From: Anaerolineaceae bacterium
Lineage (GTDB): Bacteria; Chloroflexota; Anaerolineae; Anaerolineales; Anaerolineaceae
Direction: 5' to 3'
Assembly: GCA_050013615.1 (NCBI GenBank)
Contig: JBEKEX010000002.1
Location: forward strand, 8,661 to 72,660
Length of the DNA: 64,000 nucleotides
This document shows, one piece after another, positions 10,028-28,385 of the stretch. How positions within the stretch are numbered: position 1 is the first letter of the stretch; each line of letters opens with the position of its first letter. The notes beneath the pieces were generated by a model. That model did not search any database. It was not told the DNA's origin and saw nothing but the letters and a program-made list of their open reading frames with translations. The translations under genes were made by a program, and so were the position numbers.

Positions 10028-10567
10028 ATGCAAACTGAGATCATCATCGCTGGATTTGGCGGTCAAGGTGTGCTTTTTGCCGGGCAGCTTTTATCCTATG
10101 CTGCATTGGATGAAAAAAAAGAAGTGACCTGGATCCCCTCTTACGGCCCTGAAATGCGCGGCGGCACGGCCAATTGCACTGTGATCATCGCCGACGAAGA
10201 GATCGGCTCGCCGCTGGTGCGCAACCCACAGGCAGTTATTGCCATGAACCTGCCCTCTTTGGACAAGTACGAACCGCTTGTCAAACCGGGCGGGGTATTG
10301 GTCGTAAACGCCTCCATGGTGGATCGAGATGTCGCACGCGAAGACATCAAGGTGGTCACCATCGCCGGCAATGAGATCGCCGAGAAGATCGGCGATAAGC
10401 GCATGACCAACATGGTGCTGCTGGGCGGACTATTGGTCAATCAACCCGTGCTGCCGCTCGAAGCCATCGAAAAAGCCCTGAAAGACCACCTCCCCGAACG
10501 CCATCACAAGCTGTTGCCGCTCAATTACCAGGCGCTGCGCGAAGGCGCAAAGTTTGTGGTCAATTAA
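10028..10567 (+). CDS. 2-oxoacid:ferredoxin oxidoreductase gamma subunit
   Basis: MQTEIIIAGFGGQGVLFAGQ is a gamma-subunit N-terminus. The RBS gggagga precedes the ATG at 10028. I rejected the track start at 9935 because it overlaps the beta gene. Confidence 0.85.
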   Translation: MQTEIIIAGFGGQGVLFAGQLLSYAALDEKKEVTWIPSYGPEMRGGTANCTVIIADEEIGSPLVRNPQAVIAMNLPSLDKYEPLVKPGGVLVVNASMVDRDVAREDIKVVTIAGNEIAEKIGDKRMTNMVLLGGLLVNQPVLPLEAIEKALKDHLPERHHKLLPLNYQALREGAKFVVN

Positions 10568-10797
10568 CCATCCAAAGCGTGATCGAAAAGCTTAAAATAA
10601 ACAACTTGGCCGGCAATCAATGCCGGCCATTTTTTGTGTGTAAGTGCTCGCGAGACCGTCAGGAAGACGACCAGTCCTGATCGACCAGCACCCAGCCCAA
10701 TGAATCGGCTGCCTTCTGCTTCTGGAAATGCCCACCGCTGTCGACGCTTCCGGTGAAAACGTCATTGGCCATATCGAGCACTTCCCCCTGCCGCTCG
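10508..10797. repeat. Direct repeat copy A. It covers the 3' end of the OFOR gamma gene, the terminator and the 3' end of wzt, all parts of intact genes.
   Basis: It aligns by eye with 27999-28287 (see copy B). Confidence 0.85.
10606..10635. terminator. Bidirectional intrinsic terminator between the convergent gamma-subunit and wzt genes
   Basis: The hairpin ggccggca-atcaa-tgccggcc is flanked by an A-run upstream and tttttt downstream. Confidence 0.7.
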
Positions 10798-11918
10798 ATT
10801 TGAAGAGAAATACTGATGTTACCCGGGGCAATGGGAAATTTAGTGATCTTACACGTCACAGAACCTGTTCGGGACTTCAATTTCAACGACCCGGCGGTTG
10901 TTCTCGTGGAAAGATTCGAGATGACGTCCCCGTTCAGCGTCTTCAGCAAGATCGAAAAATTGACGTCCGTCACAGGCGTGGGATAGCTCGTCTCGTACTC
11001 GATCACAAAGCTCGTGGGCGAACCGCTCGTCAGCGTATCCACGACCGCCCCATGCTCGCCGCGGATGGTAAACCCGGTGATCTTTATCGGCCCGGCCGGC
11101 AGCCCCTGGCGGCTTTCTTCGAGCTCATACTTGCTTTCCGACACGACAGAAGAGAGGTAGTACTCGACTGCATCCGACACGCGGCCAAGCGGGAACGCTA
11201 CATTTCCGTGTTCGAGTACCATCGCCTGGTTGCATAGGGAAGCCACCGTGGTCATATTATGGCTGATAAAAAGGATCGTCCCGCCATTCAAAGAGACTTC
11301 CTTGATCTTGGCTATACTTTTCTGTTGGAAAGCCGCGTCCCCCACCGACAAGACCTCATCGACCAACAAAACCTGCGGGTGCAGGTGAGCTGCCACTGAA
11401 AAAGCCAAGCGCACTTCCATGCCTGAGGAGAAGCGCTTGACCGGTGTATCGAGGAATTGCTCGACGCCCGAGAACGCCACGATCTCGTCGAATTTCTTCT
11501 TGATCTCGGCTCGCGACATCCCTATGATCGATCCGCTGATAAAAATATTTTCCCTGCCGGTCAACTCGGAGTGGAAACCGGTGCCTACTTCGAGCAGTGA
11601 GCCCACTCTGCCATAGATGGTGACCCTGCCGGTCGTGGGTTGCGTGACGCGGCTCAAGATTTTGAGCAGAGTGCTCTTCCCTGCCCCGTTCCTGCCGATG
11701 ATACCGATGATATCACCTTCATTGGCTTCGAAGGAAACATCCTGGAGCGCCCAAAAAGTGGTGTACTTGCCTTGGCCTGTCCCATTGCGGAGTCGATTCG
11801 CAAAGTTCATTACATCATCGACCAGTACGCGCTGATTCTGGCGCCAGCCTATCCCAGTGTTAGGGCGGAGCCTGTAGCGTTTAGAGATGCTCTCTGTTCG
11901 GAGAATAAAATCAGACAT
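10659..11918 (-). CDS. wzt: Polysaccharide/glycopolymer export ABC transporter ATP-binding protein (Wzt/TagH type) with a C-terminal extension
   Basis: It has Walker A GRNGAGKST, the signature FSSGMEVRLAFS and Walker B LLVDEVLSVGD. About 170 aa follow the NBD, as in Wzt C-terminal glycan-binding domains. It overlaps the permease gene by 1 nt. Confidence 0.8.
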   Translation of the reverse strand: MSDFILRTESISKRYRLRPNTGIGWRQNQRVLVDDVMNFANRLRNGTGQGKYTTFWALQDVSFEANEGDIIGIIGRNGAGKSTLLKILSRVTQPTTGRVTIYGRVGSLLEVGTGFHSELTGRENIFISGSIIGMSRAEIKKKFDEIVAFSGVEQFLDTPVKRFSSGMEVRLAFSVAAHLHPQVLLVDEVLSVGDAAFQQKSIAKIKEVSLNGGTILFISHNMTTVASLCNQAMVLEHGNVAFPLGRVSDAVEYYLSSVVSESKYELEESRQGLPAGPIKITGFTIRGEHGAVVDTLTSGSPTSFVIEYETSYPTPVTDVNFSILLKTLNGDVISNLSTRTTAGSLKLKSRTGSVTCKITKFPIAPGNISISLQIERQGEVLDMANDVFTGSVDSGGHFQKQKAADSLGWVLVDQDWSSS

Positions 11919-12772
11919 CAGATATAATCCGCAAAACTTCGCTCTAAGCGACTAAAGATGAACAGGCCGATGATAAAAATGATGCAGGAGGCGATAGCCG
12001 AATAAACGAGGGACTGCAAAGGAAAGTCGATGGTGGTAAAGAATGCCCAACGGAAGCCATTGATCAAGCCAACGATTGGGTTCAAATCGTAGATCCAGCT
12101 CCAACTTGCCGGGATCAACTTGGCCGAATACGCCAGCGGTGAGGCAAACATCCACACCTGGATGATGAACGGCAGAGCATAGGAAAAATCACGATAATAA
12201 ACATTGAGAGCAGCAAAAATGGTCCCCACCCCGATCGCAAGCATCAGAACAAAAACAACCAGCACGGGGATGATGAGCAAATTCAGTGAGAATGGCATCC
12301 GGTACACCAATAACAAAATGACCAAAACGGCCAGCGATACCAAGAAATCGACCAGCGTGGAAAGGGCTTCTGAAATCGGAAGGATGATGCGGGGAAAAAA
12401 TATCTTGGTGATAAGCCGCAAATCCTTGGTCAGGCTGTCGCTGGAACGTTGGAGCGATTGTGCGAAAATATTCCACGGCAATAGACCCGAAAAAGCGTAC
12501 AAAGAATAATTGATATTCTCCGAAGGTGCTTTCATCAATTGGCCGAAGATGAGGGTAAAGATGACCGTGGTCAACAACGGTTGAAGAATGACCCAGGTGA
12601 CGCCTAGAAATGTTTGGCGGTAGCGGAGCTGCACTTCGCGCATCGCCAGCATCCAGAGCAGTTCACGATGTTCCCATAATTCTTTGAGATTGAGGTTGAA
12701 CCACTTTTCGGACGGCTCGATGACCATTTTTTTTAGCTTTGGGGGGTCCGGCATTTTCTCAACCGACATCAT
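11918..12772 (-). CDS. wzm: ABC-2 type polysaccharide export permease (Wzm/TagG type)
   Basis: At 284 aa it has about 6 hydrophobic segments. The N-terminal ELWEHRELLWMLAMREVQLRYRQTFLGVTWVILQP is typical of the ABC-2 family. It is translationally coupled to wzt (TGATG overlap). Confidence 0.8.
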   Translation of the reverse strand: MMSVEKMPDPPKLKKMVIEPSEKWFNLNLKELWEHRELLWMLAMREVQLRYRQTFLGVTWVILQPLLTTVIFTLIFGQLMKAPSENINYSLYAFSGLLPWNIFAQSLQRSSDSLTKDLRLITKIFFPRIILPISEALSTLVDFLVSLAVLVILLLVYRMPFSLNLLIIPVLVVFVLMLAIGVGTIFAALNVYYRDFSYALPFIIQVWMFASPLAYSAKLIPASWSWIYDLNPIVGLINGFRWAFFTTIDFPLQSLVYSAIASCIIFIIGLFIFSRLERSFADYI

Positions 12773-12993
12773 TTTTTCCTTTATCGGGAATTCGATTCAG
12801 CAAAAAGCAAAATTCTGATTTTTCTATATTATTGCGAATGATTGGCTCCCAATTAAATAACCCGAATTTCCCTTCCACGCTTGCATTTTCTTGTTAGCGA
12901 GCCTGCGCATTATTATACCGTAAGCTATACGCTTCGGCAAAATCGACCAAGCTCAATCAAATCTTTTACTCATGAAACGAGCTTATAAAATGA

Positions 12994-13021
12994 TTGACTT
13001 AGGATAGCAAATCTCTATAAT
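12994..13021 (+). promoter_or_regulatory. Sigma70-like promoter for the methyltransferase gene
   Basis: TTGACT (12994-12999), a 16-nt spacer and TATAAT (13016-13021). Confidence 0.45.
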
Positions 13022-13133
13022 GGTCTTATAAAATTGGCAATCTCAATACTTGCCAGTAACAACCTGATGCGGTGACCCTCAACAGGGGTTATTATATTCT
13101 TTGCCAATCGAATTCGAAAACCTGAATAATGGG

Positions 13134-13808
13134 ATGAATATGGAAACTTTGCAAGAACGTGCCAACAAGATTAAAGCAGAAGGGATCTTCCTCGGTGGTG
13201 TTCCTCAACGATTTGAGATTGCCGGCCGAACACTTTTAATCACCCTGTTGAGTGAGGGTTTACATCCTTATTCCAAAGTCCTGGACATTGGCTGCGGATG
13301 CCTGCGTGGGGGATATTGGCTTATTCACTTCCTTGATAAAAACCGCTATTTTGGCATAGAGCCCAACAAGAAAATGCTCGATGCAGGGCTCCAATATCTT
13401 TTGGAGCCGGGGTTATACGAGGAAAAGAATCCGCACTTCGATAATAATTCGGATTTTAACTTTGATGTCTTCAAGGAAAAGTTCGATTTTCTCGTGGCGC
13501 TTTCGATATGGACCCACGCTTCGAAGCCCCAAATTCAAAGCATGCTGGATGGTTTTGTCAGTACCACCGACACAAAAGGGGTATTTATCACCTCGTACTA
13601 TCCCGCGACGATATTCAAACCTGATTACAAGGGCGCAAACTGGATCGGGGCTGGGAATCCTGCACAACCGCACGGGATGATCCATCACAGTCTTGGATGG
13701 ATCAAAGCCGAATGTGAAAAAAGAGGGTTGGTTGCCCAAGAGGTTCCGGAAAAGGCGTACCAATACTGGAATCAAACCTGGCTGAAGATTAGCCATAAAG
13801 CGGCCTGA
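13134..13808 (+). CDS. Class I SAM-dependent methyltransferase
   Basis: It carries motif I, VLDIGCGCLRGGYW. The start is ambiguous between the TTG at 13101 (track) and the ATG at 13134 or 13140. Confidence 0.65.
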   Translation: MNMETLQERANKIKAEGIFLGGVPQRFEIAGRTLLITLLSEGLHPYSKVLDIGCGCLRGGYWLIHFLDKNRYFGIEPNKKMLDAGLQYLLEPGLYEEKNPHFDNNSDFNFDVFKEKFDFLVALSIWTHASKPQIQSMLDGFVSTTDTKGVFITSYYPATIFKPDYKGANWIGAGNPAQPHGMIHHSLGWIKAECEKRGLVAQEVPEKAYQYWNQTWLKISHKAA

Positions 13809-13853
13809 ATCCTTCAGTAAGTTTGACCTTTTATCAAGCGATGAATAACTCTA

Positions 13854-16487
13854 TCATGAAATTTCTTCGATATATCGCTGAATGATCTCAGCCACTTGAC
13901 TCACTGCCGGCTCGAACAAGATACTCCCATGATAGCAATCCAAAGGATGAATGACCAATTCACCTAAGGAAACCCGATTCCAGCCATTGGTTGGATTCTT
14001 TGAAGCCGGCCCGCGAATGGCCTTGAAAAGGATCACCCGTCCCGGGTAAGGGAGCACCTGGTATTCCCGCGTCGCCTGACGGTTAACCTTTTCCATCTGG
14101 AGGATGCTTACCGGAAGCGCAATCTGCCTGGTTTTTTTCGATTTTCCACGGTGACTTTCCAAAAACCGCTCAACCCTTTGCTGACCAATCTCCCGGTAGA
14201 ACCGCAGATAATCCATTTTCCCTTGCCAATTAGATTTTAACAGAATGGTGAAGTGCTTCTTGATCAACATTTCATAATAAGGCACACTCTTCTTTTCGCG
14301 ATAACCATCGCTTATTGACTCTTCCATATTATATGTGTCCAGCATCACTAGCACGGGAACTTGTTTGTCGGTTTTCAACAACTGTTGGGCCATTTCGTAG
14401 GCAATCTTGCCACCTGATGATTCGCCAATGAGCACGTAGGGGCCATGCGAATAGAGCTTTTTGATCTCGGCCAGGTAATAAGCAGCCATGGTTTCGATCG
14501 AGCGCGAAATCTGCTCCCGGTTGTCGTTGCTCAAATCCTGCAAAGCGAACACCGGTGTCTGAGGATCGATCTTTTTAGCCAGGTGACGGATCCGGGTAGG
14601 ATAACCGCCTTTGCCCGGAATAAAGAACAAAGGGGCATGGTCACCCTCGGTATTGATGGGAATAATGGGTGAATAATTTTGTGCCTCATCCTCGTTTCGG
14701 ATCAGTTCCGCTTGCTTGCGGATGGTGGGGGCAATCAGAAGTGTCGAGACCGGCAAATTCTTGCCCAAGGCTTCTTCGATGGCGGCAAAAATGAGCGCAC
14801 CGATAAGCGAATCGCCACCCACTTCGAAGAAATCGTCTGTGACACCAACCCCGTTGACGCCGATTTGTTCTTCCCAGATCGCCATCAATTGCTTTTCCAG
14901 CTCATCGGCAGGGGGTACGTAATCATTGGAAAGCGGCGGCCGAACCATTTTTGGAAGCGGAAATTGGTTGATGGCCACTTTACCGCTCATGGTTAATGGA
15001 AATTCATCGAGCTCGATTAAATAATGAGGCAGCACAGCCGCTGGCAACCGTTCGGCCAAATATTTGCGGAGATCCGAGACAGGAATTTGAATGCCTTTTT
15101 CCGCAACAAAATATAAAGCCAGTCTCTTGTTCCCATTGTGATCCTCAAAAGTTCGAGAGGCAACCTGGACAATGCCAGGGTAGGAAAGTATATAATTCTC
15201 GATGCTCTCCAGTTCGATTCGGATCCCGCGAATCTTGACCATGTTGTCGATCCTGCCTAGGTGTACCAATTGACCATCGGATCGCAGCGTCCCCAGATCG
15301 CCCGTTTTGAAATATTGCCATCCCGGATGATCAGGGTCGGGAATAAACCTCTCCTGGGTCAGTTTCGAATTATTGATATATCCTCTCGCCAAGACATCCC
15401 CATAGACAACGATCTCGCCCTCCTGGTCGGGCGGCAAGGGGCACCCCTGCTCATCCCAAATATAAACTTTTATATCCTCATAAGGCTCCCCGCAGGGAAG
15501 ATTATCCTGCCCAAAGTTAAAATCGATCGGAAAGAATGTAGAAGAAACAGCCTGCGTTTCCGTGGAAGCAAAACCAAGCTGGATTCGCTTCACACCAGGA
15601 AAATATTTCTTGATATCCTGAATATCCTTAGGAAGCCTCTTCTCTGATCCCACATGAACAGTGTTGACACACGGAAATTTATCATTTGGGCCTAATATAC
15701 TGACCATGCTTCGGAATAGCGTAGAAGTAGATCGATAAACAGTAATCTGTTGCTGGCGAATCCAATTGGGCAAGTCAGCAAAGCCATCTTCTTTGACATC
15801 GTAATAACAAATCGTAAAGCCGGACACCAGTGCGTTAAAAACAAGAAGATGTAAACCGGAATAAGCAAATGTAGCTAATTGCAAAACACGGTCACTCGGT
15901 TCAAGGCTATGAGTTGATACTTTAAGAAACGCGGCCCGGCCTAAATAACGATAGTCTTCGATGGCACCTTTCGGCTGACCAGTCGAGCCTGATGTGAATA
16001 GAATTTGCACAATATCACCCGAAGAATAATTCACCTCCGGTTCGCTAATTTCTTGCTCAAAATCCACTTCATCGAGGTTAAGGATCATGACTTTATCCCC
16101 CACCAGGGAGCGGATCTGATCTAAATAAGAACTGACAGTCAAAATGACTCTAATCTCAGCATTATCGAGCATATAACGAAGCGTCGATTCTGGATAGTTC
16201 ATGCTCAGCGGGACAAAGTAATTTCTGGATTTCAAGATCCCTATCATGGACGGGATGATCTTGGAGTGATCATTCATAAACAAGCCAACCCCCAAGCCCG
16301 TTTTGCCTTTTTCAAGTTCCTGGATACGCGCAAAGATAACATTGGCCCGTTGGTTAATTTCGGCATAGGTCAATGATCCATTTTTAGTGACCAAAAATTC
16401 TTTATCCGCGTATTCACGGACAGTCTGCTTAGCCAATTTCCAATAATTATTAATGTAATCATCTCGCGTGAATTCACTACGCATCAT
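13854..16487 (-). CDS. Stand-alone NRPS-like synthetase with adenylation, thiolation (PCP) and thioesterase domains (A-T-TE), copy 1
   Basis: The A-domain cores are LTYAEINQRAN (A1), ILFTSGSTGQPKGA (A3), GEIVVYGDVLARGYIN (A6), FKTGDLG (A7), GRIDNMVKIRGIRIELESIE (A8) and SGKVAIN (A10). The PCP motif is FFEVGGDSLIG. The TE has PLFFIPGKGG, the nucleophile elbow GESSGGKIA and a C-terminal His (CYHGS). Confidence 0.85.
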   Translation of the reverse strand: MMRSEFTRDDYINNYWKLAKQTVREYADKEFLVTKNGSLTYAEINQRANVIFARIQELEKGKTGLGVGLFMNDHSKIIPSMIGILKSRNYFVPLSMNYPESTLRYMLDNAEIRVILTVSSYLDQIRSLVGDKVMILNLDEVDFEQEISEPEVNYSSGDIVQILFTSGSTGQPKGAIEDYRYLGRAAFLKVSTHSLEPSDRVLQLATFAYSGLHLLVFNALVSGFTICYYDVKEDGFADLPNWIRQQQITVYRSTSTLFRSMVSILGPNDKFPCVNTVHVGSEKRLPKDIQDIKKYFPGVKRIQLGFASTETQAVSSTFFPIDFNFGQDNLPCGEPYEDIKVYIWDEQGCPLPPDQEGEIVVYGDVLARGYINNSKLTQERFIPDPDHPGWQYFKTGDLGTLRSDGQLVHLGRIDNMVKIRGIRIELESIENYILSYPGIVQVASRTFEDHNGNKRLALYFVAEKGIQIPVSDLRKYLAERLPAAVLPHYLIELDEFPLTMSGKVAINQFPLPKMVRPPLSNDYVPPADELEKQLMAIWEEQIGVNGVGVTDDFFEVGGDSLIGALIFAAIEEALGKNLPVSTLLIAPTIRKQAELIRNEDEAQNYSPIIPINTEGDHAPLFFIPGKGGYPTRIRHLAKKIDPQTPVFALQDLSNDNREQISRSIETMAAYYLAEIKKLYSHGPYVLIGESSGGKIAYEMAQQLLKTDKQVPVLVMLDTYNMEESISDGYREKKSVPYYEMLIKKHFTILLKSNWQGKMDYLRFYREIGQQRVERFLESHRGKSKKTRQIALPVSILQMEKVNRQATREYQVLPYPGRVILFKAIRGPASKNPTNGWNRVSLGELVIHPLDCYHGSILFEPAVSQVAEIIQRYIEEIS

Positions 16488-16509
16488 CAATGTCCTTTTG
16501 ATAATAAGA

Positions 16510-16536
16510 GGCGGGAATAAACTTGTTCTTCCCGCC
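16510..16536 (-). terminator. Hairpin (attenuator or partial terminator) between SBP copy 1 and synthetase copy 1
   Basis: An 8-bp GC stem (ggcgggaa / ttcccgcc) is followed on the minus strand by the U-rich cucuuauuauc. It ends about 20 nt upstream of the synthetase start. Confidence 0.4.
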
Positions 16537-16690
16537 CCGCTATTTCAATCTACTGGTGAAGTAACTCCATTCACTTGAGCGCTCGTATCTCCTGGTCGGT
16601 CAAAATCACCCTCCAAACCAGTTCCTACAAAAGGTGAAAAACAATTTGGAGGTCAAAAAAAAAGAATCTATAGTAAAGCCTCTACCATAT

Positions 16691-17779: not shown

Positions 17780-18048
17780 CACTTCTCCTCCGTTTGAGAA
17801 CATAATTTACCTAGCCTAGACACACATTATACTAAATTCGCAAAAACTAATAAAGCATTACCTCCTACAACCGCCAAAAATCAACTACAAGTGAACATTC
17901 GATGTATGATATGTCCTTGCAAGTTCACTATCACCTATCGAGCCATAATTTTTCAAAACGATATCCGTTTTATTGCATATCCATGATTATTTAATATATA
18001 ATTAACCCCATCAGGTAATTATTACAATTTTTCATGTTTGGAGGAGTC

Positions 18049-19122: not shown

Positions 19123-19157
19123 GCTAATTCTTCATTAAGTGCGCTTAAGTTTAAAGC

Positions 19158-19196
19158 ATAAGGGGTAGGAGTGACGGAGTCATACTTACCCCTTAT
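19158..19196 (+). terminator. Hairpin (attenuator or partial terminator) between SBP copy 2 and synthetase copy 2
   Basis: A perfect 10-bp stem (ataaggggta / taccccttat) with a 19-nt loop, followed by uaauggcucuu. Confidence 0.4.
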
Positions 19197-19225
19197 TAAT
19201 GGCTCTTCAAATCCGCGGAACTATA

Positions 19226-21853
19226 ATGTTGCCAAAAGAAATAAACCAATTAACCAAAGAAGAACTCCTAGGAAACTTCTGGGATTATGTAAAACGCTCC
19301 ATAGAACTCAATGGTGAGAAAATATTTATTGCTACCAAAACGGGCTCTACCACCTATAAAGAAGCAAATCAACGAGCCAATGCCATTTATCAGGTAATTA
19401 AAGAGAATATAGAAACGACTGGGATAGGAATTGGACTATTTATGAAAGACCCCCATCAAATCATTCCGGCTATGATGGGCGTTTTAAAATCCGGAAATTA
19501 TTTCATCCCATTGGATGTAACCTTCCCCCAATCCACGTTGCTAGACATGATCAAAGTTGCTGAGATCAAAGTTGTCTTGACCGTCAGTGAATTAAAAAAC
19601 CAGATTCGTTCTCACCTAGGAGAAAATATCCCGATCCTCAACATCGATACATATCCTAACATAGATGAAATCGAAGATCCCGTCGTCCATTACACGCCGG
19701 AAGACATTGTTCAAATATTGTTTACCTCTGGATCAACGGGAAAACCTAAAGGAGCAATCGAGGATTACCGTTATTTAACTCGCGCCGTTTTTATAAAACT
19801 TTCTTCTTACGAATATGCGCAGGACGAACGACTTTTACAAACATCCAAGTTCACTTTCGCCGGGCCGCATTGCATCGCCTTCACTGCACTCATTAACGGG
19901 ATCACCTTATGTTATTACAGTGTTTCAGAAGAGGGAATTGCCGGATTGCCGGATTGGATCCGGCAACAGCAAATTACTTCCTACTCAACGACCCCAACAG
20001 TATTTCGAAGTCTCGTCAGCATTTTGAAGCCTGATGACATTTTTCCCTCCATCCGATATACCAGTTTTGGGGGCGAGAAGAGATTTGGCAACGACATCAA
20101 GGCGATTAAAAAATATTTCCCCAACGTAGAAAAGATACGTTTGGGGTTCAATTCCACTGAAACCCAAGCGGTTGCTGCGACCATCTACCCGGCCAATTAT
20201 GGTTTTGATCAGAATCAACTTCCTAGCGGCAAACCCTACAAAGATCTCCACGTTTTCATCTGGGATAAGGAAGGCCATGCTTTGCCCAAAGGACAAGAAG
20301 GAGAAATCGTGGTCCACGGAGACTTCATGGCGCGTGGGTATATCAATAATCCCAATTTGACCATGGAAAAGTTTATTCCTGATGCCAGTCATCCCGGCTG
20401 GCAATTCTACAAAACCGGCGACCTGGGGAAATTGCTGCCAGATGGTCAACTGGTGCACCTGGGCCGGATGGATAATATGGTCAAGATTAGGGGAATGCGC
20501 GTCGAACTTGACAGCATCGAAAACCACTTGCTATCATACCCTGGCATCAGCGAGGTTGCCTCGAAGGCAATTGAGGATTTAAAGGGCAATAAAAGGTTGG
20601 TCACTTATTTTGTGTCGAAAGAAGATACTCAAATCCCCATCCCGGATTTACGCAGATACCTGGCAGGACGATTACCGGCGCATTCGCTCCCCCACTACTT
20701 AATCAACCTGAAAATATTTCCCCGTACCGGCAATAATAAAATCGCCTACGACCAATTGCCGCCGCCTGAAATGATCCGTCCCAACCTGGCCAATGAGCTT
20801 GTCCCTCCCGCCGATGAACTGGAAGATAAATTACTGGAACTTTGGGAAGATCAATTGGGGATTAAAGGAATCGGCGTCACCGATGATTTTTTTGAGGTCG
20901 GCGGCGACTCACTGATGGGCGCTCTTTTGTTCGCCGCGGTCGAAGAAACCTTGGGAAGAAATTTGCCGGTCACCGTCTTGCTAAAGGCCCCTACCATTCG
21001 CGAGCAAGCAGCCTGGATCCGAAACAAAGATTCAGCCCAAGATACCCCCTCGATCATACCCGTCAGAACAAGCGGAGATCGTCCGCCCCTGTTTTTTATT
21101 CCTGGAAAAGGTGGCTATCCCACGCGCATACGTCATCTGGCCAAGAAACTGGACGAACGAATACCGATCTATGCCTGTCAGGATTTGATGGAAAATGAGA
21201 ATGGCAATTCTTTTCACTCGGTAGAATCTATGGCAGCCCGTTATTTGAGAGAAATGGAAGAGCTATATCTTCATGGCCCATACATCCTGGTTGGCGAGTC
21301 TGTGGGAGGGAAAATTGCTTACGAAGTTGCTCAAAACTTGCTCAGCAGAGGCGAACAAGCACCCATCTTAATCTTGTTGGACACCTATAATTTTGACGAT
21401 TCAGCCATAGAAGATTTTCGTAACGATCAAAACAGCTATTACAGGATGCTGGTTAATAAACACCTTTCCATTTTGCTCCGATCGAATTGGCAAGGAAAGC
21501 TGGACTACCTACAGTTCTATAGAAAAACATTCATCCAAAAAGCCAGGCGCTTTATAGGCCGTCGTATAAACAGAAAACGACAAAGCACAAGCACTGCACT
21601 ACCAGAAAACATCCGTAGAATCGAAAAGGCAAACCGCATAGCCGCACAAGTTTACGAGACAAAACCCTATCCAGGGAAGATAGTCTTGATCAAAGCGCTG
21701 CGAGGACCCAAAGCGAACGAGACGTCGAATGGGTGGGATAAAGTTCAATTGGGTGAACTGGTTGTCCACAAAATAGATTGTTACCATGGAAGTATACTAT
21801 TCGAACCCGCCGTCAGCCAGGTTGCAGGTATAATTCAAGGACTCCTCGAATAA
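19226..21853 (+). CDS. Stand-alone NRPS-like synthetase (A-T-TE), copy 2
   Basis: The motifs are ILFTSGSTGKPKGA, GEIVVHGDFMARGYIN, YKTGDLG, GRMDNMVKIRGMRVELDSIE, PCP FFEVGGDSLMG, and TE PLFFIPGKGG / GESVGGKIA / CYHGS. It is collinear with copy 1. I prefer the ATG at 19226 over the track start at 19199, which sits inside the hairpin. Confidence 0.85.
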   Translation: MLPKEINQLTKEELLGNFWDYVKRSIELNGEKIFIATKTGSTTYKEANQRANAIYQVIKENIETTGIGIGLFMKDPHQIIPAMMGVLKSGNYFIPLDVTFPQSTLLDMIKVAEIKVVLTVSELKNQIRSHLGENIPILNIDTYPNIDEIEDPVVHYTPEDIVQILFTSGSTGKPKGAIEDYRYLTRAVFIKLSSYEYAQDERLLQTSKFTFAGPHCIAFTALINGITLCYYSVSEEGIAGLPDWIRQQQITSYSTTPTVFRSLVSILKPDDIFPSIRYTSFGGEKRFGNDIKAIKKYFPNVEKIRLGFNSTETQAVAATIYPANYGFDQNQLPSGKPYKDLHVFIWDKEGHALPKGQEGEIVVHGDFMARGYINNPNLTMEKFIPDASHPGWQFYKTGDLGKLLPDGQLVHLGRMDNMVKIRGMRVELDSIENHLLSYPGISEVASKAIEDLKGNKRLVTYFVSKEDTQIPIPDLRRYLAGRLPAHSLPHYLINLKIFPRTGNNKIAYDQLPPPEMIRPNLANELVPPADELEDKLLELWEDQLGIKGIGVTDDFFEVGGDSLMGALLFAAVEETLGRNLPVTVLLKAPTIREQAAWIRNKDSAQDTPSIIPVRTSGDRPPLFFIPGKGGYPTRIRHLAKKLDERIPIYACQDLMENENGNSFHSVESMAARYLREMEELYLHGPYILVGESVGGKIAYEVAQNLLSRGEQAPILILLDTYNFDDSAIEDFRNDQNSYYRMLVNKHLSILLRSNWQGKLDYLQFYRKTFIQKARRFIGRRINRKRQSTSTALPENIRRIEKANRIAAQVYETKPYPGKIVLIKALRGPKANETSNGWDKVQLGELVVHKIDCYHGSILFEPAVSQVAGIIQGLLE

Positions 21854-21877
21854 AGTATCAACGAGAACAATAGATCA

Positions 21878-22645
21878 ATGACGATTATCTTCAACAATAT
21901 CAGCAAAAAGTTTGCCAAAAATACAGACCACGAAGTTGAAGCCCTTGATAAGGTCGATTTTACAATCGAGGAGCATGAATTTGTTGCTATTGTAGGCCCC
22001 AGCGGTTGTGGAAAGACCACCTTGCTGCGAATTGCAGCAGGGTTGATCAAGCAGGATACAGGCCAAATCATCTACCGTGGTATCAAAAACCCCAAAGCGA
22101 TCCTGGTATTCCAGGATAAGGGGTTGCTCCCCTGGCTGACCGTATTGGATAACATTTGTCTTGGCCTGGAACTGCAAGGGGTCCCCAAGGCCATTCGTGA
22201 AAAACGCGCACTTGATTTTATGAAACTGGTCAAGCTGGGCGGTTTCGAAAAAAACTATCCTCATGAACTATCAGGGGGCATGCAGCAACGAGTAGCCCTG
22301 GCGCGCGCTTTCCTCACCAATCCAGACGTATTGCTCATGGATGAGCCCTTTGGAGCGCTGGATGCCCAAACGCGGACCATTCTTCAAGAAGAATTGTTGA
22401 ACCTCTGGTTTAGGGAACGCAAAACGGTCCTGTTCGTAACGCATGACATCGACGAAGCCATTCTATTGAGCGACCGTATCATCGTGCTCAGTGACCGGCC
22501 CGGTAAGATACAACAAACGATCGTCGTACCCATGAGTCGCCCCCGCGACCTGAAATCAAAGGACGACCCAAGGTTCCTTGAGATACGTTCGCAGATATGG
22601 AGTTTGCTGGAGCAAGAAGTACGCAAAGAATTGGAATTGATTTGA
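21878..22645 (+). CDS. ABC transporter ATP-binding protein, NitT/TauT (SsuB/TauB-like) family
   Basis: It has Walker A GPSGCGKTT, the signature LSGGMQQRVALARA and Walker B LLMDEPFGALD. Confidence 0.85.
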   Translation: MTIIFNNISKKFAKNTDHEVEALDKVDFTIEEHEFVAIVGPSGCGKTTLLRIAAGLIKQDTGQIIYRGIKNPKAILVFQDKGLLPWLTVLDNICLGLELQGVPKAIREKRALDFMKLVKLGGFEKNYPHELSGGMQQRVALARAFLTNPDVLLMDEPFGALDAQTRTILQEELLNLWFRERKTVLFVTHDIDEAILLSDRIIVLSDRPGKIQQTIVVPMSRPRDLKSKDDPRFLEIRSQIWSLLEQEVRKELELI

Positions 22646-22652
22646 GATTCGT

Positions 22653-23432
22653 ATGCAAAAGAATACCAAGTATACCCGCGAACATCTGATCACTTTTGGT
22701 TTGGTTTTTGGGTTTCTTGCGATTTGGGAAATTTGTGCCCGGACCGGTAAGATTTCTGCACTCATTTTCCCACCCCCCACGGTGATCATCCAATCATTTT
22801 TTATTGATCTGGTACATGGCGTATATACGAAGGATACGCTTATCTCCTTATCCAGGATGTTCATCGGCATTATCATCGGCGGCGGAATTGGCCTGATCTT
22901 GGGATTGATCATGGGATGGTCAAAGCCCATACGAGCAACCCTTGATCCCATTATCTCTGCATTGCTCCCCATTCCCAAGCTAACCCTCCTGCCCATGGCT
23001 CTGATCATCTTCGGGCTGGGAGAGACATCGCGCACCGTAATGGTCAGCATCAGCGCATTTTTTCCAATGCTCATTAATGCCATGGTTGGGGTAGCGCAAA
23101 TCAACCCGAACTATTATGAAGTCATTGAAAACTACGGTGCATCTCCCTTTGATATATTTCGAAAAGTCGTCCTTCCAGGAAGTATGCCGTTCGTTTTGAG
23201 TGGATTCCGTTTATCCTTCCAGGCTGCATTAATGATCACCGTTGGAGTCGAGATGATGTGGGGTAACGATGGCCTGGGATCTGTTTTGTGGCTGGCATGG
23301 GAAACCATGCGAATGACAAATTTGTACGCAGTTTTAATTATCATCTCAATCATTGGCGTTGGGTTCAATTGGCTGTTGGAATACTTGCAAGCCGTTCTAC
23401 TCCCTTGGCATCACGAAAACCGCCCCTCCTGA
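22653..23432 (+). CDS. ABC transporter permease, SsuC/TauC-like (binding-protein-dependent inner membrane component)
   Basis: It is a 259-aa polytopic protein. It directly follows the ATPase with a 7-nt gap. Confidence 0.75.
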   Translation: MQKNTKYTREHLITFGLVFGFLAIWEICARTGKISALIFPPPTVIIQSFFIDLVHGVYTKDTLISLSRMFIGIIIGGGIGLILGLIMGWSKPIRATLDPIISALLPIPKLTLLPMALIIFGLGETSRTVMVSISAFFPMLINAMVGVAQINPNYYEVIENYGASPFDIFRKVVLPGSMPFVLSGFRLSFQAALMITVGVEMMWGNDGLGSVLWLAWETMRMTNLYAVLIIISIIGVGFNWLLEYLQAVLLPWHHENRPS

Positions 23433-23450
23433 GGGGCGGTTTGTTTTTTT
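23419..23450 (+). terminator. Intrinsic terminator after the ABC importer operon
   Basis: The stem accgcccctc / gaggggcggt overlaps the stop codon and is followed by ttgttttttt. Confidence 0.75.
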
Positions 23451-23555
23451 AACCCATCGAATTCTTTCTGATCTTATGGGTGCATACGCCCATTATTGGG
23501 GGCTCAAGCTTCCCCATTTCCACAAATAGACTTTGCCCACAAGTCTATATCGATT

Positions 23556-24692
23556 TCAATCTTGGCCTGCAATAACTTCACGAAAAACGAACTCGTAGCT
23601 ATCTACTACCGCTTTTATATCAAACCGACTGGCGTGTTCCAGGCTGTTCTTGCGGGCCTTTAGGAGAGTCTGGTGGTCAGACAGAAATCGGCGTAATGCG
23701 CCAGAAAGTGCATTTCGATCACCCGGTTCTGCAAGATAGCCGTTAAAGTTTTGTTCCACCAGGTCCGAAAACCCTCCCACATTGTTTGCCACGATAGCCA
23801 ATCCGCAAGCCAGCGCTTGAATCCCGACCATTGGCAATCCTTCGGACAAAGAAGGCATGAAAAGGATATCGCTCTGTTCTAAATAGTGTTGCGCTTCGTC
23901 CTGTGTGGCCCAACCAGTCAATGTGAATCGATCTTTCAAGCTCAATTCATCGATGCGACCCTGAATCTCCCTGCGAAGCGGCCCATCTCCTACCAACATG
24001 CAACGCCATGGCACATCGCGCACCAAATTCAAAACCTCTACCAGTTCCATGAGATTCTTTTGCTGCACAAACCGTCCAACAAATATGACAGCCGGCGGCT
24101 CATGGATTGATAATTGCCCGGTCCCAATGGCCTTGATATCCAAACCGTTGGGGATTATCTGGGGAGTTATCCCATACTGCTTATAGGTCAGTGAAGCCGT
24201 GAATGAACTGACCGCCGTACTGCGGGCAGCGTGTTTCCAAATAGACGCCGTCAACAGATAGACCCAACGAAACCACCTATCGGTCTTTTCGGGCACCCCA
24301 CCGGGCACATCGCCCAGGTGTGCGGTGAGCACGTATGGTATTCCGGTCATTCGATGGAGAACCCAGGCAACCGCCCCACCTGGAACAGCAAAGTGCACAT
24401 GGATCAGGTCGGGACGCCAATCACGGACGATCTTATAGCCCGCGTTAATGGCAGAAATGACGAACAAACCCATCGTCAGGAAGCCAGCTTTATAGGGTTG
24501 TTTCCTAAAAGAAGGCAGGCGGATCAGCCGAACATTGTTAATGAGCTCTTCTCTGGGGAGCCCCTTCAAATGCGCGGTGAGAACGGTGATTTCATGCCCC
24601 CTGCGTGCCAGTTCATTTACAATTGCCTGGCACGACTGCCCCCCTCCACCACCTATGGGAGGATATTCATGGTTGATAACCAGGATGCGCAT
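23556..24692 (-). CDS. Glycosyltransferase family 4 (GT-B fold)
   Basis: It has MRILVINHEYPPIGGGGGQ at the N-terminus and a C-terminal PSLSEGLPMVGIQALACGLAIVANNVGG region (EX7E-like). Confidence 0.8.
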   Translation of the reverse strand: MRILVINHEYPPIGGGGGQSCQAIVNELARRGHEITVLTAHLKGLPREELINNVRLIRLPSFRKQPYKAGFLTMGLFVISAINAGYKIVRDWRPDLIHVHFAVPGGAVAWVLHRMTGIPYVLTAHLGDVPGGVPEKTDRWFRWVYLLTASIWKHAARSTAVSSFTASLTYKQYGITPQIIPNGLDIKAIGTGQLSIHEPPAVIFVGRFVQQKNLMELVEVLNLVRDVPWRCMLVGDGPLRREIQGRIDELSLKDRFTLTGWATQDEAQHYLEQSDILFMPSLSEGLPMVGIQALACGLAIVANNVGGFSDLVEQNFNGYLAEPGDRNALSGALRRFLSDHQTLLKARKNSLEHASRFDIKAVVDSYEFVFREVIAGQD

Positions 24693-24698
24693 GTGTTG

Positions 24699-25667
24699 TT
24701 ATTTCTTGGTTTTATCGTTGACCACGGTGCGAACCGTATAAATGGATTTTCCTTGCGCTTCATGATAAGTACGGATCAGCAACTCGGCTATCAAGCCCAT
24801 CAGCAGGGATTGAAAGCCAAGGATGAAAACGACAATGCTGATCTGGAAAAGGGGTGATTCCAAGATCGATGTAAAAAGCAGGAATTTTCGCACCACCAGA
24901 AATGCGAACACGACCAGGCTAGACGCCATTAATCCCAATCCCACACCGCCAAACAGCCGCATCGGTTTCGCAGAATAGCTCATCAGAAATTTGACCGTGA
25001 ACAAATCAAGGACAACTTTAACCGCCCGGTCGAGACCATAATTGCTTTTCCCATGTTTTCGGGGATTGTGGTGGACCACCACCTCGGTTACTTTAGCGCC
25101 GGCAGCTTCAGCATAGACCGGGATGAAGCGATGCATTTCCCCATAAAGATGGAACGAGCCCAAGAACTCACGACGATAAGCCTTAAGGGTACAGCCATAA
25201 TCATGTAAATGAAGGCCCGTCACCCATGAAATGAGCCCGTTGGCGAGATTGGAGGGAAGCGTACGTGTCAGATAGTTATCTTTGCGGTCCTTGCGCCATC
25301 CGCTGACGACATCGTAGCCTTCATCCAACTTTGCCAGGAGAAGTGGAATATCCGCCGGGTCATTCTGCAGATCGGCATCCAATAAGATGACGATATCACC
25401 TTGGGCGCGATCGATCCCAGCAGCGATGGCTGCAGTCTGTCCATAATTACGCCTTAGCTCTACCACCCGGATATGGGCTTGATCTTCCTGTTCGAAGCCT
25501 TTCAATATTTCCACGCTATGATCGATGCTACCATCATCGACAAATATGATCTCCCAATCGAGTTTCAACGGTTCGATAGACTTCCTTACCGCATCGCTCA
25601 AAGGGACCAAATTCTGCTCTTCGTTATAGACGGGAATAATTAGGGTTAAGTCCATTGAACCGTTCAC
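24699..25667 (-). CDS. GT2 polyprenyl-phosphate glycosyltransferase (GtrB/ArnC/DPM1-like) with a C-terminal membrane anchor
   Basis: It contains IIPVYNEEQNL, IIFVDDGSIDHS and the DxD motif LLDADLQNDP. There are two C-terminal hydrophobic helices. Confidence 0.8.
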   Translation of the reverse strand: MNGSMDLTLIIPVYNEEQNLVPLSDAVRKSIEPLKLDWEIIFVDDGSIDHSVEILKGFEQEDQAHIRVVELRRNYGQTAAIAAGIDRAQGDIVILLDADLQNDPADIPLLLAKLDEGYDVVSGWRKDRKDNYLTRTLPSNLANGLISWVTGLHLHDYGCTLKAYRREFLGSFHLYGEMHRFIPVYAEAAGAKVTEVVVHHNPRKHGKSNYGLDRAVKVVLDLFTVKFLMSYSAKPMRLFGGVGLGLMASSLVVFAFLVVRKFLLFTSILESPLFQISIVVFILGFQSLLMGLIAELLIRTYHEAQGKSIYTVRTVVNDKTKK

Positions 25668-25865
25668 CGATATTGAGCAATCGGCCTTTCTGGATAAAAT
25701 GAAATAATGTCATTGCTTTGAGACCCAGCCGCAATACCAAACTCAATCATCATTATATACAATATTACTGATCATGTGCGTTTACTTACTGGTTTTCTTC
25801 GAAAAATTGCGAATATCAACAAATTCAGGCACAACCAAATACCTGCGATCGTTTTGTGTTGGTGA

Positions 25866-27722
25866 TCACGGTTTCTTGTAATATACGTCCACGTAATCAG
25901 GCACCGGGCACGAGAACTCATCAGGCGGGAACTGCAACAGGTCGTATTTTTCAGGAGAGAAGAAACCATTCCACGAATCGATCCGATTCCCACTGATGAT
26001 AAAAACGTCAGCCTGGTCACGCCAGGTGAACGCAATTTCATCGCTCCAAAGGCCGCGTTCCAGCAGACTATTTGCGTCGCCACTTGATTTACGAGAATAT
26101 GATCCATTCACTTGCGGGGGAAGGATCACATAATTGTTTGCATATAACAGCGGGATGGCAGTGATCGTGCCATCCAGATAGACTTTCCCTCCACTGGGAA
26201 TGATCTGGGAGACTTGCGTGCCGATCTGTTGGAAGGAATCGACCACGTTGCTATTACATAAGGGATCAGAAATTGGCCAAGACATCAGCGGGGTCAATAA
26301 AAATCCAATGGCAAGGAATACCATTGCCGAAAAATAAGCAAAACTGAAATTCTTCTTATGAAGATATTTCTGAAACACCAAAAACAAAACCAAAAACAAC
26401 AGTACACCGACCAATAGCCCCACAACGGCAGGGACGTATTGGCGTGCATCCGCATAAACCACATGATACTTATTATTGATCAGGTGCCAAAGCGTAGTCC
26501 AACCAGGTGCTAGCCAACCGTTTTGGACGCGAGGAACAGGCAAATTCAATAGCCAGGCGCCAATTTGTTCGGACCATGAATAGAATACTGCAGAACTGAC
26601 CATGATCAGTCCGGTAATGATTGCAAGTCTCGAAAACCACGAAGGGGTTTTATTTAAAGCTCCCAACGTGATCACCACCAAAAGCAACCCAACATCACCC
26701 CAAAACGCGAAATAGTTTGTAAAACAATAAACGCAATATACATCCCCCAGTGATGCCCATGCATGGGTGATCAGTAAAATAAAAAATGATACGGCCAAGA
26801 ATACGGCAGCACGGAAAAGGGAGCGTGAAGGCCAGGCTTCTTTTTTGGGCCAGAGGAAGAGGACAAGAATACTGCCAATGAAAGGCACAAAATGGTTGCG
26901 GATCGTCAACGCCAGGCTGTTGATGCGCGAGGAAAGGGATATTGTGGAATTTCCAGCCCCGGCCGCAGTCGCGGTGGTTTGTTGCAAGCCCAAAATTGAA
27001 TTGAAAGGCAGCCACTTAAGCCATAATTGCATGATATCCGGCCAATAAATAAGATGCCCGATGATCAGAACAATGCTGAAAGCGGCCAATGCAAAAAAAC
27101 CTTTCCGTTTTCCATGTTCCCAGAATATATACAAGATCAATAACGGGGGAACGAATATCATATTCTCCCGCGTCAATACAATGATCCCCGCCAGTAGAGA
27201 ACCCAGGATAATTTGCCATAGCGGTCGATCCGAACCCAGGGTCAACACAAGTATCCAAACGAGCATGACGATGACCAAAACTTGGGAATTGGCGATACTG
27301 TAAGTGCTGTTCAGGGAAGGATTGAGTGCCAACACCCAGACCGCCAGAGCAGCCAGCCAACAATTGCTCAACCGCCGGGCAATGATCCATGTTCCGATCA
27401 CAGAGAGAATGCTGAATAACACTGCGAAAAAACGCGGCGCTTGCAAGCCGGCCCCGAACAGTACCTGTATCCATCCCCAAATTAAGAAGGACAGATACAT
27501 CTTGTTCATCCAAAAACCATATGACTGGAAAGGAACGTAAACCCCCTTGGCAAAGAGCAGACCCTTCAGCAGGTAAGACCCTTCGTCAATATTGGGCATC
27601 CGAATATGCGAAAAAATAACCGCTTGCACCGCATAAAGGACCAGCCCGGCTAAAGCAATTATTTCTGGAATTGGAAGGCGTTGAATTATCCCCGACCGCT
27701 TATTAACGTGAGTTTCGACCAT
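25866..27722 (-). CDS. GT-C fold membrane glycosyltransferase (ArnT/PMT, GT39/GT83-like)
   Basis: At 618 aa it has more than 10 hydrophobic segments. The first loop carries an acidic DE motif (MPNIDEGSYLLKG). It has a soluble C-terminal domain. Confidence 0.65.
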   Translation of the reverse strand: MVETHVNKRSGIIQRLPIPEIIALAGLVLYAVQAVIFSHIRMPNIDEGSYLLKGLLFAKGVYVPFQSYGFWMNKMYLSFLIWGWIQVLFGAGLQAPRFFAVLFSILSVIGTWIIARRLSNCWLAALAVWVLALNPSLNSTYSIANSQVLVIVMLVWILVLTLGSDRPLWQIILGSLLAGIIVLTRENMIFVPPLLILYIFWEHGKRKGFFALAAFSIVLIIGHLIYWPDIMQLWLKWLPFNSILGLQQTTATAAGAGNSTISLSSRINSLALTIRNHFVPFIGSILVLFLWPKKEAWPSRSLFRAAVFLAVSFFILLITHAWASLGDVYCVYCFTNYFAFWGDVGLLLVVITLGALNKTPSWFSRLAIITGLIMVSSAVFYSWSEQIGAWLLNLPVPRVQNGWLAPGWTTLWHLINNKYHVVYADARQYVPAVVGLLVGVLLFLVLFLVFQKYLHKKNFSFAYFSAMVFLAIGFLLTPLMSWPISDPLCNSNVVDSFQQIGTQVSQIIPSGGKVYLDGTITAIPLLYANNYVILPPQVNGSYSRKSSGDANSLLERGLWSDEIAFTWRDQADVFIISGNRIDSWNGFFSPEKYDLLQFPPDEFSCPVPDYVDVYYKKP

Positions 27723-28001
27723 GCCCCACCTGTAAAACGAAAAAAGAAAGCATCTGAAGAGTCATGTGGAATAAACCTCATCACTGGTTTGGCTGTTTGC
27801 AAACACATTTATATCAACAACGGGGATTAACTGCAAGGAATCTCGTAATAGGTGTTGTTATTGACCAAAAGATAGCTTTCTGCCCATTGTTTTCAAATTC
27901 TATCGATTTCCTTAGTTTCCCTATACTTTAAATTAGATTAATATTTACCGTTTGGGAAAGATGAATTATTATTTGACAAACCTCACTTCCGGAAGTAAAA
28001 G

Positions 28002-28058
28002 ACGCTGCCGCTCAACTACCAGGCGCTGCGCGAAGGCGCAAAGTTTGTGGTCAACTAG
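28002..28058 (+). pseudogene. Relic of the last 18 codons plus stop of an OFOR gamma-subunit gene
   Basis: It translates to TLPLNYQALREGAKFVVN*. The intact gene ends LLPLNYQALREGAKFVVN*. There is no upstream coding continuation, because an in-frame stop lies at 27996-27998. Confidence 0.8.
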
Positions 28059-28147
28059 CCAATCGCTTCTTTGCCTGGAAGCTTACATTAAAAACTTGGC
28101 TGGCAATAAATGCCGGCCATTTTTGTGTGTAAGTGCTCGCGAAGCTA

Positions 28148-28285
28148 TCAGGAAGATGACCATTCCTGATCGATCAGTACCCAGCCCGACGAATCGGCCA
28201 CCTTCCGCTTCTGAAAATGCCCGCCGCTATCGACGCTCCTTGTGAATACGTCATTGGCCATATCGAGCACTTCCCCCTGCCGCTC
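28148..28285 (-). pseudogene. Relic of the last 45 codons plus stop of a wzt gene
   Basis: It translates to ERQGEVLDMANDVFTRSVDSGGHFQKRKVADSSGWVLIDQEWSSS*. The intact Wzt C-terminus is ERQGEVLDMANDVFTGSVDSGGHFQKQKAADSLGWVLVDQDWSSS*. That is 39 of 45 identical by hand alignment. Similarity stops abruptly upstream. Confidence 0.8.
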
Positions 28286-28385
28286 GAAGTGACTTCTACT
28301 TTGATCTCGGCCAAAGATAAAATCCATTATTTAACAATTCAAGCCACTAATAACAACCTGGCTGAATTAATAAATTTCTGATTTT

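Follow-up and report, generated by a model that had tools for sequence, protein, structure and literature searches.

An orphan kor/wzt junction beside a surface-glycan locus in an Anaerolineaceae genome: a probable scar of exchange between two related haplotypes

How does the junction between two convergent genes come to stand twice in one chromosome, once inside intact genes and once as an orphan? This question is raised by a 64-kb stretch of DNA (hereafter the window) from an 835-kb contig of an Anaerolineaceae metagenome-assembled genome (MAG; JGI 3300038429). In the window, the 3' end of korG, the gamma gene of a 2-oxoacid:ferredoxin oxidoreductase (kor) operon, faces the 3' end of wzt, a gene of a surface-glycan cluster, across a bidirectional terminator. 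This junction, H, is present as the resident kor/wzt junction (copy A, or H_A) and again, 17.5 kb from it and in direct orientation, as an orphan relic (copy B, or H_B). Two versions of the interval between kor and a conserved glycosidase gene, GH4, enter our argument: haplotype W, which has the glycan cluster, and an inferred haplotype X, which has a sugar phosphotransferase system (PTS) module. We consider it likely that the relic is the kor/wzt junction of X, a second and related haplotype, and that W and X are now joined in tandem. A first-pass annotation of the window had noticed the repeat and had read everything between its copies as a cassette brought in beside kor; as described below, the repeat stood up to analysis, and the cassette reading was not supported in the form given.

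The two copies of the junction

The coordinates of the repeat were set with MAFFT and a repeat finder, and domains were assigned with Pfam on the sizeable open reading frames (ORFs) of the whole 64 kb. The parts of the two copies are:

10508-10803, both strands: copy A (H_A), the intact junction, delimited by MAFFT, the repeat finder and alignment
10508-10567, plus strand: last 19 codons and stop codon of korG in copy A
10607-10629: bidirectional terminator hairpin of copy A, with a 9-bp stem, separated from the korG tail by a spacer
10659-10796, minus strand: last 45 codons and stop codon of wzt in copy A; homology extends to 10803
27999-28292: copy B (H_B), the orphan relic, 294 bp, delimited by MAFFT, the repeat finder and alignment
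27999-28058, plus strand: korG tail of copy B, followed by a spacer
28097-28119: terminator hairpin of copy B
28148-28285, minus strand: wzt tail of copy B with its stop codon; homology extends to 28292
CCAATCGCTTCTTTGCCTGGAAGCTTACATT: relic-specific spacer sequence

In a global alignment the copies were identical in 249 of 296 columns (84%), with two single-base gaps, and the longest exact blocks were 40, 38 and 23 nt. BLASTN gave the match an E value of about 5e-87. Identity was 90% in the korG tail, 56% in the spacer, 92% in the hairpin with its T-run and 88% in the wzt tail. In the 100 nt beyond each repeat edge it fell to 31% and 24%, which is the random level, and thus the similarity ends abruptly. 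The imperfect direct repeat of the first-pass annotation is real, and its description of the second copy as an orphan relic also proved correct, with unrelated flanks and a stop codon ahead of the korG-tail frame.

The relic translates cleanly, as had been claimed for it. The plus strand reads K*KTLPLNYQALREGAKFVVN* and the minus strand reads ERQGEVLDMANDVFTRSVDSGGHFQKRKVADSSGWVLIDQEWSSS*, in which 39 of 45 residues are those of the resident Wzt tail, without a frameshift. There are no coding indels, and the coding differences between copies A and B fall 4/4/14 on codon positions 1, 2 and 3. The hairpin has been kept and the spacer has diverged. A single stem change turns a G-C pair into G-U on the plus strand and into a C-A mismatch on the minus strand. 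On the plus strand the folding energies were nearly equal (-19.5 kcal/mol for the relic and -19.7 for the intact copy), and on the minus strand they were -13.7 vs -20.3 kcal/mol. The minus-strand hairpin, which faces the SorC operon of the sugar module, is followed by UUUUU, and a terminator scan listed the plus-strand site only. The predicted relic hairpin probably still terminates the SorC/PTS transcript; the relic is without a coding role. Rfam and tRNA scans gave no match at either junction copy.

We found the relic and both of its flanks spanned, at 99.9-100% identity, in at least seven independent assemblies that come from other samples and assemblers, with the relic itself 100% identical:

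Contigs spanning the relic and both flanks: L095/L101, L096/L102, L097, L105, L107 (= L086), L108, L109

Copy A is spanned by contigs L082 and L083, and an identical Wzt was found on other contigs of the same strain. A GenBank MAG numbers KorG, Wzt ... GT-C and SorC consecutively (MGD0706999, 7000 ... 7011, MGD0707012), an order that fits the 14 genes of the window across both copies. Four short-read contigs (L098, L103, L104, L106) stop inside the relic, in or beside the exact-identity blocks, as is expected of a true repeat. We conclude that the relic is no assembly artefact.

Origin of the relic and of the segment that follows it

Relatives for comparison were metagenomic contigs, and sister alleles were located via 90%-identity cluster members of Wzt and GT-C, a glycosyltransferase (GT). 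The sister lineage is represented by one 40,348-bp contig, Ga0643848_0000435 (our loci L110 and L111), which is about 90% identical to the window in the flanks. In none of 80 GTDB Anaerolineaceae loci (KorG identity 64-86%) did wzt follow kor; these loci have almost no synteny past the kor operon and are too distant for reconstructing the event. The convergent kor/wzt junction is conserved in the close relatives L084, L087, L088, L089, L110, L112, L113 and L114. Since the junction is confined to this subclade and arose once there, both copies in the window descend from it.

To which of these junctions is the relic closest? Copies A and B are 84.9% identical, B and the sister alleles L110/L113 are 87.0% identical, and A and L110 are 81.3% identical. 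In a neighbour-joining tree rooted with L088 and L089, B grouped with the sister alleles in 435 of 500 bootstraps. When sites were polarised with the outgroups, eight derived states were shared by B and L110, four by A and L110, and two by A and B. At the protein level the relic Wzt tail matched the sister alleles P0245 and P0246 at 41 of 45 residues, compared with 39 of 45 for the resident Wzt. Private sites numbered 28 in A (ten of them in one 14-nt spacer patch), 14 in B (two of them in the joint codon described below) and 23 in L110, which makes the relic the shortest private branch of the three, and the private coding changes of B outside the joint codon fall 1/1/5 on the codon positions. 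The first-pass annotation had allowed for a related allele as the source, and on a sample of about 290 bp it is the allele of a different lineage that B resembles.

Neutral decay since an old duplication predicts the longest branch, even use of codon positions, and indels, and none of these was seen in the relic, which argues that it is allelic. The copies are not each other's closest relatives, and the relic has evolved neither faster nor without codon bias, although the sites are few and the outgroups distant. The relic appears to carry the signature of selective constraint. These comparisons suggest that, for most of the time since it separated, H_B was part of a functioning kor/wzt junction in another, related lineage and that it was orphaned fairly recently, a conclusion that is well supported but not proven. 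The spacer patch at 10574-10587, in which copy A has ten private substitutions in 14 nt and the relic and the sister lineage agree, looks like one small replacement or repair event in the resident copy. We also considered a recombination breakpoint around H_A and rejected it: every pair of lineages is most diverged over the spacer and the Wzt C-terminus, so that the peak marks fast local evolution and leaves both directions of transfer open to choice.

The relic lies between the intergenic region of GT-C and a sugar module:

27723-27998: intergenic region upstream of GT-C
27976-28003: novel illegitimate joint, where a GT-C/GH4-type intergenic end meets korG codon -17/-18
28293-36859: lineage-specific SorC/PTS/aldolase sugar module (Pfam)
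28386-29351, minus strand: SorC/DeoR-type regulator
29538-29855, minus strand: EIIB, weak match
29957-30415, minus strand: PTS EIIA
30586-32001, minus strand: PTS EIIC-GAT, followed by orf159
33399-34196, plus strand: DeoC/LacD aldolase
34267-35517, plus strand: SDR
35582-36406, plus strand: class II aldolase, followed by a 453-bp spacer
36798-36811, plus strand: GH4-promoter-like piece ATGAATTATAATTT, with -10-like TATAAT, 49 nt upstream of GH4
36860-41915: conserved right flank with GH4 glycosidase (36860-38101, plus strand), DeoC, class II aldolase, PfkB kinase and DegV

To the left of the relic, positions 27752-27841 are common to L099 and L111, and positions 27943-27975 are common to L100, where they stand about 75 nt upstream of the GH4 start codon. 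A promoter-like sequence, TTTACC-17-TATTAT, lies in this second piece on the plus strand (27944-27972), and in L100 its counterpart is directed towards GH4. Colinearity between the L100 spacer and the window runs from 27723 to about 27985. The joint that follows shows no more than about 3 nt of microhomology (AAG). It probably includes the "L to T" codon at 28002-28004, which is found in none of the KorG sequences sampled. We therefore found a single novel junction: the sequence left of about 27985 is colinear with relatives, H_B is colinear with the kor/wzt junction, and 27976-28003 alone is new.

On the right, homology to relatives resumes near the GH4 start codon, within 4 nt (at 36856 for L111 and at 36860 for L100). 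Given the colinearity of L100 on the left and this resumption on the right, the extra DNA of about 8.9 kb begins at the left edge of the relic. The relic is thus the left terminus of a lineage-specific segment whose remainder is the sugar module, and this segment is absent between GT-C and GH4 in L100, L099 and L111. The first-pass annotation had set the sugar module outside the feature; the module sits directly right of the relic and is lineage-specific with it. Beyond it the right flank is colinear with relatives (77-80% identity with L100 and L099, 89% with L111). In the module itself, the SDR-family protein at 34267-35517 has an N-terminal extension of about 170 aa without a Pfam match.

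The two ends of the segment share one short similarity. Positions 36798-36811 match 27961-27974 at 13 of 14 positions, ATGAATTAT(T/A)ATTT occurs nowhere in the window except at 27961 and 36798, and in a shuffle test of the boundary regions 13/14 was reached in 7 of 2000 shuffles. The similarity of the whole spacers at the segment ends is not significant, and for this reason we treat the match as a lead only: 36798-36811 may possibly be the copy of the GH4 promoter that belonged to haplotype X. A target-site duplication was considered and not adopted, since the segment ends share just this one match, which is probably promoter-related. A separate motif of 18-25 nt, GGATTAACTGCAAGGAAT, lies upstream of GT-C at 27821-27845, with conserved counterparts in L099, L100 and L111; upstream of GH4 (36774-36791) there is a copy that agrees at 16/18 positions. 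It may be an operator or leader element.

Was the glycan block itself brought in beside kor? The left flank and the block are made up as follows:

7862-10567, plus strand: kor operon, the conserved left flank
7862-8101, to 9224, 9228-10016 and 10028-10567: kor delta, alpha, beta and gamma (korG)
10659-11918, minus strand: wzt (Pfam ABC_tran and Wzt_C)
11918-12772, minus strand: wzm (Pfam ABC2_membrane)
13101-27722: rest of the glycan block, with a methyltransferase (MT), A-T-TE 1 (adenylation, thiolation and thioesterase domains), substrate-binding protein (SBP) 1, SBP 2, A-T-TE 2, an ABC ATPase, an ABC permease, GT4, GT2 and GT-C
25866-27722, minus strand: GT-C

The Pfam matches of kor are POR_N/PFOR_II, TPP_enzyme_C, POR and Fer4, and the operon is 93-96% identical to that of L110. 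The gene content between the copies is as the first-pass annotation had listed it. We carried out the syntenic comparison that it had proposed, and in close relatives kor is followed by the wzt locus. The sister contig reads kor, H, wzt, wzm, MT, SBP and A-T-TE modules, ABC genes, a 654-aa gene, GT4, GT2, GT-C, orf142, GntR and GH4; it has a single H, no relic between GT-C and GH4, and no PTS module. L100 reads DegV, PfkB, class II aldolase, DeoC, GH4, a 347-bp spacer, GT-C, GT2 and GT4, and L099 reads GH4, GntR, orf142 and GT-C; the window holds no remnant of GntR or orf142. With kor on one side and GH4 on the other in sisters and relatives, the position of the glycan block is ancestral to the clade. 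Judged by gene order, then, the block between kor and GH4 appears to be the ancestral arrangement and no new cassette beside kor: the sister contig has it in the same place with one H.

A distant Anaerolineales genome, L093 (GCA_035506155.1, DATJPX010000066.1, 3062-16927), likewise has this set of genes side by side, in the order MT, A-T-TE, SBP, wzm, wzt, GT-C, GT2, GT4 and ABC genes, which is also that of L091 and L094. Relative to this order, the clade of the window is a circular permutation with kor and the GH4 sugar genes at the break. We rejected the idea that the relic is a vestige of the L091/L093 order, in which wzt comes directly before GT-C, because the relic holds the korG tail and terminator, lies past the spacer shared with L100, and is absent from closer relatives. 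A metagenome scan with a Wzt-tail alignment returned seven loci, including L086 (the same strain), L087-L089 and L091, and no donor haplotype among them. P0242, a 66-aa Wzt-tail "protein" considered as a second relic, lies at a contig edge and is uninformative.

The interior of the block has a history of its own. Synonymous divergence (dS) from the sister lineage is 0.23-0.33 for kor, 0.40 for wzm, 0.38 for the N-terminal domain of wzt, 0.29 for GT-C, 0.46 for the 5' end of GH4 and 0.28-0.55 for other flank genes. For MT, GT2, GT4 and the ABC permease it is about 0.9-1.1 (0.88-1.08), which indicates exchange of the interior with lineages further removed, as glycan loci commonly show. Gene content also varies among L084, L093, L110/L111, L113 and the window in the number of modules and in the presence of the MT gene and of the 654-aa gene. 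With conserved flanks, a deeper-diverged interior and variable gene content, the block has the make-up of a surface-polysaccharide locus, and we regard its interior as a recombination mosaic typical of such loci. These interior exchanges neither require nor account for the relic.

Within the block, 13854-21853 holds two divergent paralogous pairs, each an NMT1-type SBP with a stand-alone A-T-TE protein resembling nonribosomal peptide synthetases, and the pairs are 64-66% identical in nucleotides. There is one such module in L093, two in L113, three in L110/L111 and at least three in L084, always linked to wzm/wzt, GT-C/GT2/GT4 and an ABC importer, which suggests that the block makes a glycan decorated with an imported, adenylate-activated acid. 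A long G+C-poor stretch (37-51%) runs from 12000 to 48000 between flanks of 53-61% G+C and spans the glycan block, the PTS module and the conserved GH4/PfkB/DegV sugar genes. Because these conserved sugar genes are low in G+C too, low G+C does not here mark only recently imported DNA.

Two haplotypes in tandem and the alternatives

How could one novel joint place an allelic kor/wzt junction at the head of a sugar module? We propose that haplotype W ran kor, H, glycan cluster, GT-C, spacer, GH4, and that haplotype X would have run kor, H, wzt cut to 45 codons, 95 bp, SorC/PTS module, GH4. In X the glycan cluster would have been deleted or replaced, with the sugar module in its slot beside the kor terminator. 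The present chromosome would then consist of W from kor to just past the promoter-like site at 27944-27972, with X following from korG codon -17/-18: the korG tail, terminator and wzt tail (H_B), the PTS module, and GH4. To arrive there, DNA of a related lineage could have been anchored at one end by homology in kor or GH4 and joined illegitimately at the other; an equivalent route would be a circularised fragment inserted by a single crossover within H. Both the structure of X and the mechanism of recombination are what we infer from the present arrangement. None of the Pfam-scanned ORFs of the 64 kb is an integrase, transposase or recombinase gene, in line with what the first-pass annotation had reported for integrases and transposases.

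Two directions of import give the same structure and are equally possible. Either a W genome took up the PTS half, with the anchor in GH4, or an X genome took up the glycan half, with the anchor in kor. The second is the view of the first-pass annotation, and we keep import of the glycan block into a relic-bearing genome on these terms.

Several points weigh against a junction of two haplotypes. The site counts rest on about 290 bp, and the difference in private branches is marginal (chi-square p of about 0.06). The outgroups are about 70% identical, so that the rooting is weak, and this stretch evolves fast in all lineages. It is the small sample and the fast evolution that leave the allelic origin well supported, not proven. 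The dS values do not separate the two transfer directions. The homology of the two GH4-promoter-like pieces is short and was spotted post hoc. No contig was found with kor, H_B and SorC contiguous, all 13 of 13 contigs with the exact SorC showing the present arrangement, and among the KorG homologues and cluster members sampled none has a relic-type tail. The parental haplotype X was not among the sequences found; absence from the databases is no evidence against its existence.

The alternatives have to explain the same joint, segment and allele. One would be a tandem duplication in situ of 10508-27998 (17.5 kb), after which an imprecise deletion took away the second copy apart from its first 294 bp. 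One novel joint and one deletion would suffice, the copies are direct and in the expected order, and the cluster is evidently permutable, as in L093, where wzt comes directly before GT-C. Copies born by duplication start out identical, however, and these are about 15% apart, like alleles of sister species. Private changes number 14 in copy B, where they are biased to third codon positions, and 28 in copy A, which is under constraint, and A and B share the fewest derived sites (2 vs 8 for B and L110). The relic is missing from the sister lineage, and duplication leaves its place at the end of an 8.9-kb lineage-specific module unexplained. The first-pass annotation had offered duplication followed by deletion as a second route; the relic resembles the sister alleles at least as closely as it does the resident copy, which disfavours this route, and we hold it to be unlikely. 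We are similarly doubtful of a patchwork, in which a 294-bp junction fragment was ligated to an unrelated incoming PTS module or trapped at a repaired double-strand break, and in which no donor genome ever had wzt truncated beside SorC. Haplotype X has not been observed, both relic edges are abrupt and lack long homology, and the module, at 37-47%, is poorer in G+C than the relic and the kor region, all as a patchwork would have it; low G+C is also found in the glycan cluster and the neighbouring native sugar genes, so that composition does not mark the module as alien. Capture of this kind needs more independent illegitimate joints, and gives no reason for the direct orientation of the relic or for its position on the kor-proximal side of the module.

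The remaining explanations are far less probable. A site-specific recombinase could have inserted the glycan block as an integrative island where korG and wzt end, with the two copies as attL and attR and the replacement gene ends coming from the island. Direct repeats do bracket a low-G+C block, and the left copy does restore intact gene ends. Window scans turned up no gene for an integrase, excisionase or transposase and no tRNA gene, the repeat, at 294 bp and about 85% identity, is not a short identical core, and the sisters carry the block at the same site with a single junction copy; we consider an island very unlikely. A chimeric join of reads from two co-occurring strains is the least probable of all and can practically be set aside: the data are metagenomic and the contigs L098, L103, L104 and L106 end inside the repeat, but at least seven assemblies span the relic and flanks at 99.9-100% and the GenBank MAG has the same gene order. 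Taken together, we favour the joining of haplotypes W and X in tandem.

Once in place, the two 294-bp repeats, with their exact blocks of 38 and 40 nt, could in principle make the 17.2-kb glycan cluster excisable by RecA, although we give this only a slim chance. A crossover between the repeats would remove the cluster; what stayed behind, a whole korG with the terminator and the PTS module, would have the structure proposed for haplotype X, and the reverse reaction with the circularised allele of a relative would re-install the cluster. If this is true, the kor/wzt terminator region would be an integrase-free docking site for the loss and re-acquisition of glycan cassettes in Anaerolineaceae populations, and glycan-bearing and glycan-less cells might coexist.

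The joining of W and X would have consequences of its own. The relic would record, in datable form, that species about 90% identical have exchanged DNA in an uncultured lineage of Chloroflexota, a group for which, to our knowledge, experimental genetics is nearly absent. It would also mean competition for one chromosomal slot between a locus for surface glycan and a module for sugar uptake. The junction sequences can be searched for in metagenomic reads. The event itself would be a known kind of recombination scar and part of ordinary genome evolution, with no new mechanism or type of element.

Other features and likeness to known systems

Elsewhere in the window we noted three further features. 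A 157-nt direct repeat of 95% identity (60426-60572 and 60788-60934) corresponds to two tandem 48-aa genes with MLFAPKEKGQGLVEYALILVLVAVVVIVILALLGPAIGKIFSGIT(Q/E)SI, whose products look like putative Flp-type pilins. A T-box leader (Rfam RF00230, 97 bits) lies upstream of pheS/pheT at 59933-60193 on the minus strand. At 91-1890, five to six tandem 300-nt repeats of 64-82% identity lie within a very large surface protein gene (at least 1726 aa in the JGI call), with Cadherin, Big_9 and He_PIG domains and a sortase domain match.

Three kinds of known system resemble the locus. O-antigen and capsule switching proceeds by recombination in conserved flanking genes in Enterobacteria and S. pneumoniae, and in its classical form it replaces the locus cleanly and leaves no duplicated flank. 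The first-pass annotation had drawn this comparison, and the likeness is sound for the conserved flanks (kor, GH4), the low-G+C and far deeper-diverged mosaic interior and the variable gene content. It breaks down at the duplicated flank, since here both alleles of the interval are kept in tandem, and one "allele" is a sugar-catabolism module.

The closest mechanistic likeness is to homology-facilitated illegitimate recombination. This process, or single-crossover insertion of circularised DNA, has been described in Acinetobacter, Streptococcus pneumoniae, Pseudomonas stutzeri and E. coli (PMC3240628; refs 41, 42, 47 in PMC5361080). Both integration with homology on one side and an illegitimate joint on the other, and integration of a DNA circle by a single crossover, are documented (PMC3240628). 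Like those events, the present locus would have one end anchored in a conserved gene and the other joined without homology, one novel joint, diverged donor DNA, no recombinase gene, and a duplicated or displaced piece of the anchor. Unlike the experimental cases, the mechanism is here read from a natural product in an uncultured Chloroflexota genome, the partner was about 13-15% diverged, and the insert, 8.9 or 17.5 kb, is above most of them in size.

Events of this type have been proposed to leave displaced gene 3' ends downstream in Rhs, contact-dependent inhibition (CDI) and type VI secretion system (T6SS) arrays (PMC5361080). The relic differs from those orphans in consisting of the ends of two convergent genes with their shared terminator, in being single and not part of an array, and in its cargo, which is a glycan cluster or a sugar-uptake module and not toxins. 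It resembles the orphan 3' ends of effector-immunity loci (PMC5361080) in that it is in register, in direct orientation and downstream of the replacing module, where it would likewise record an earlier allele.

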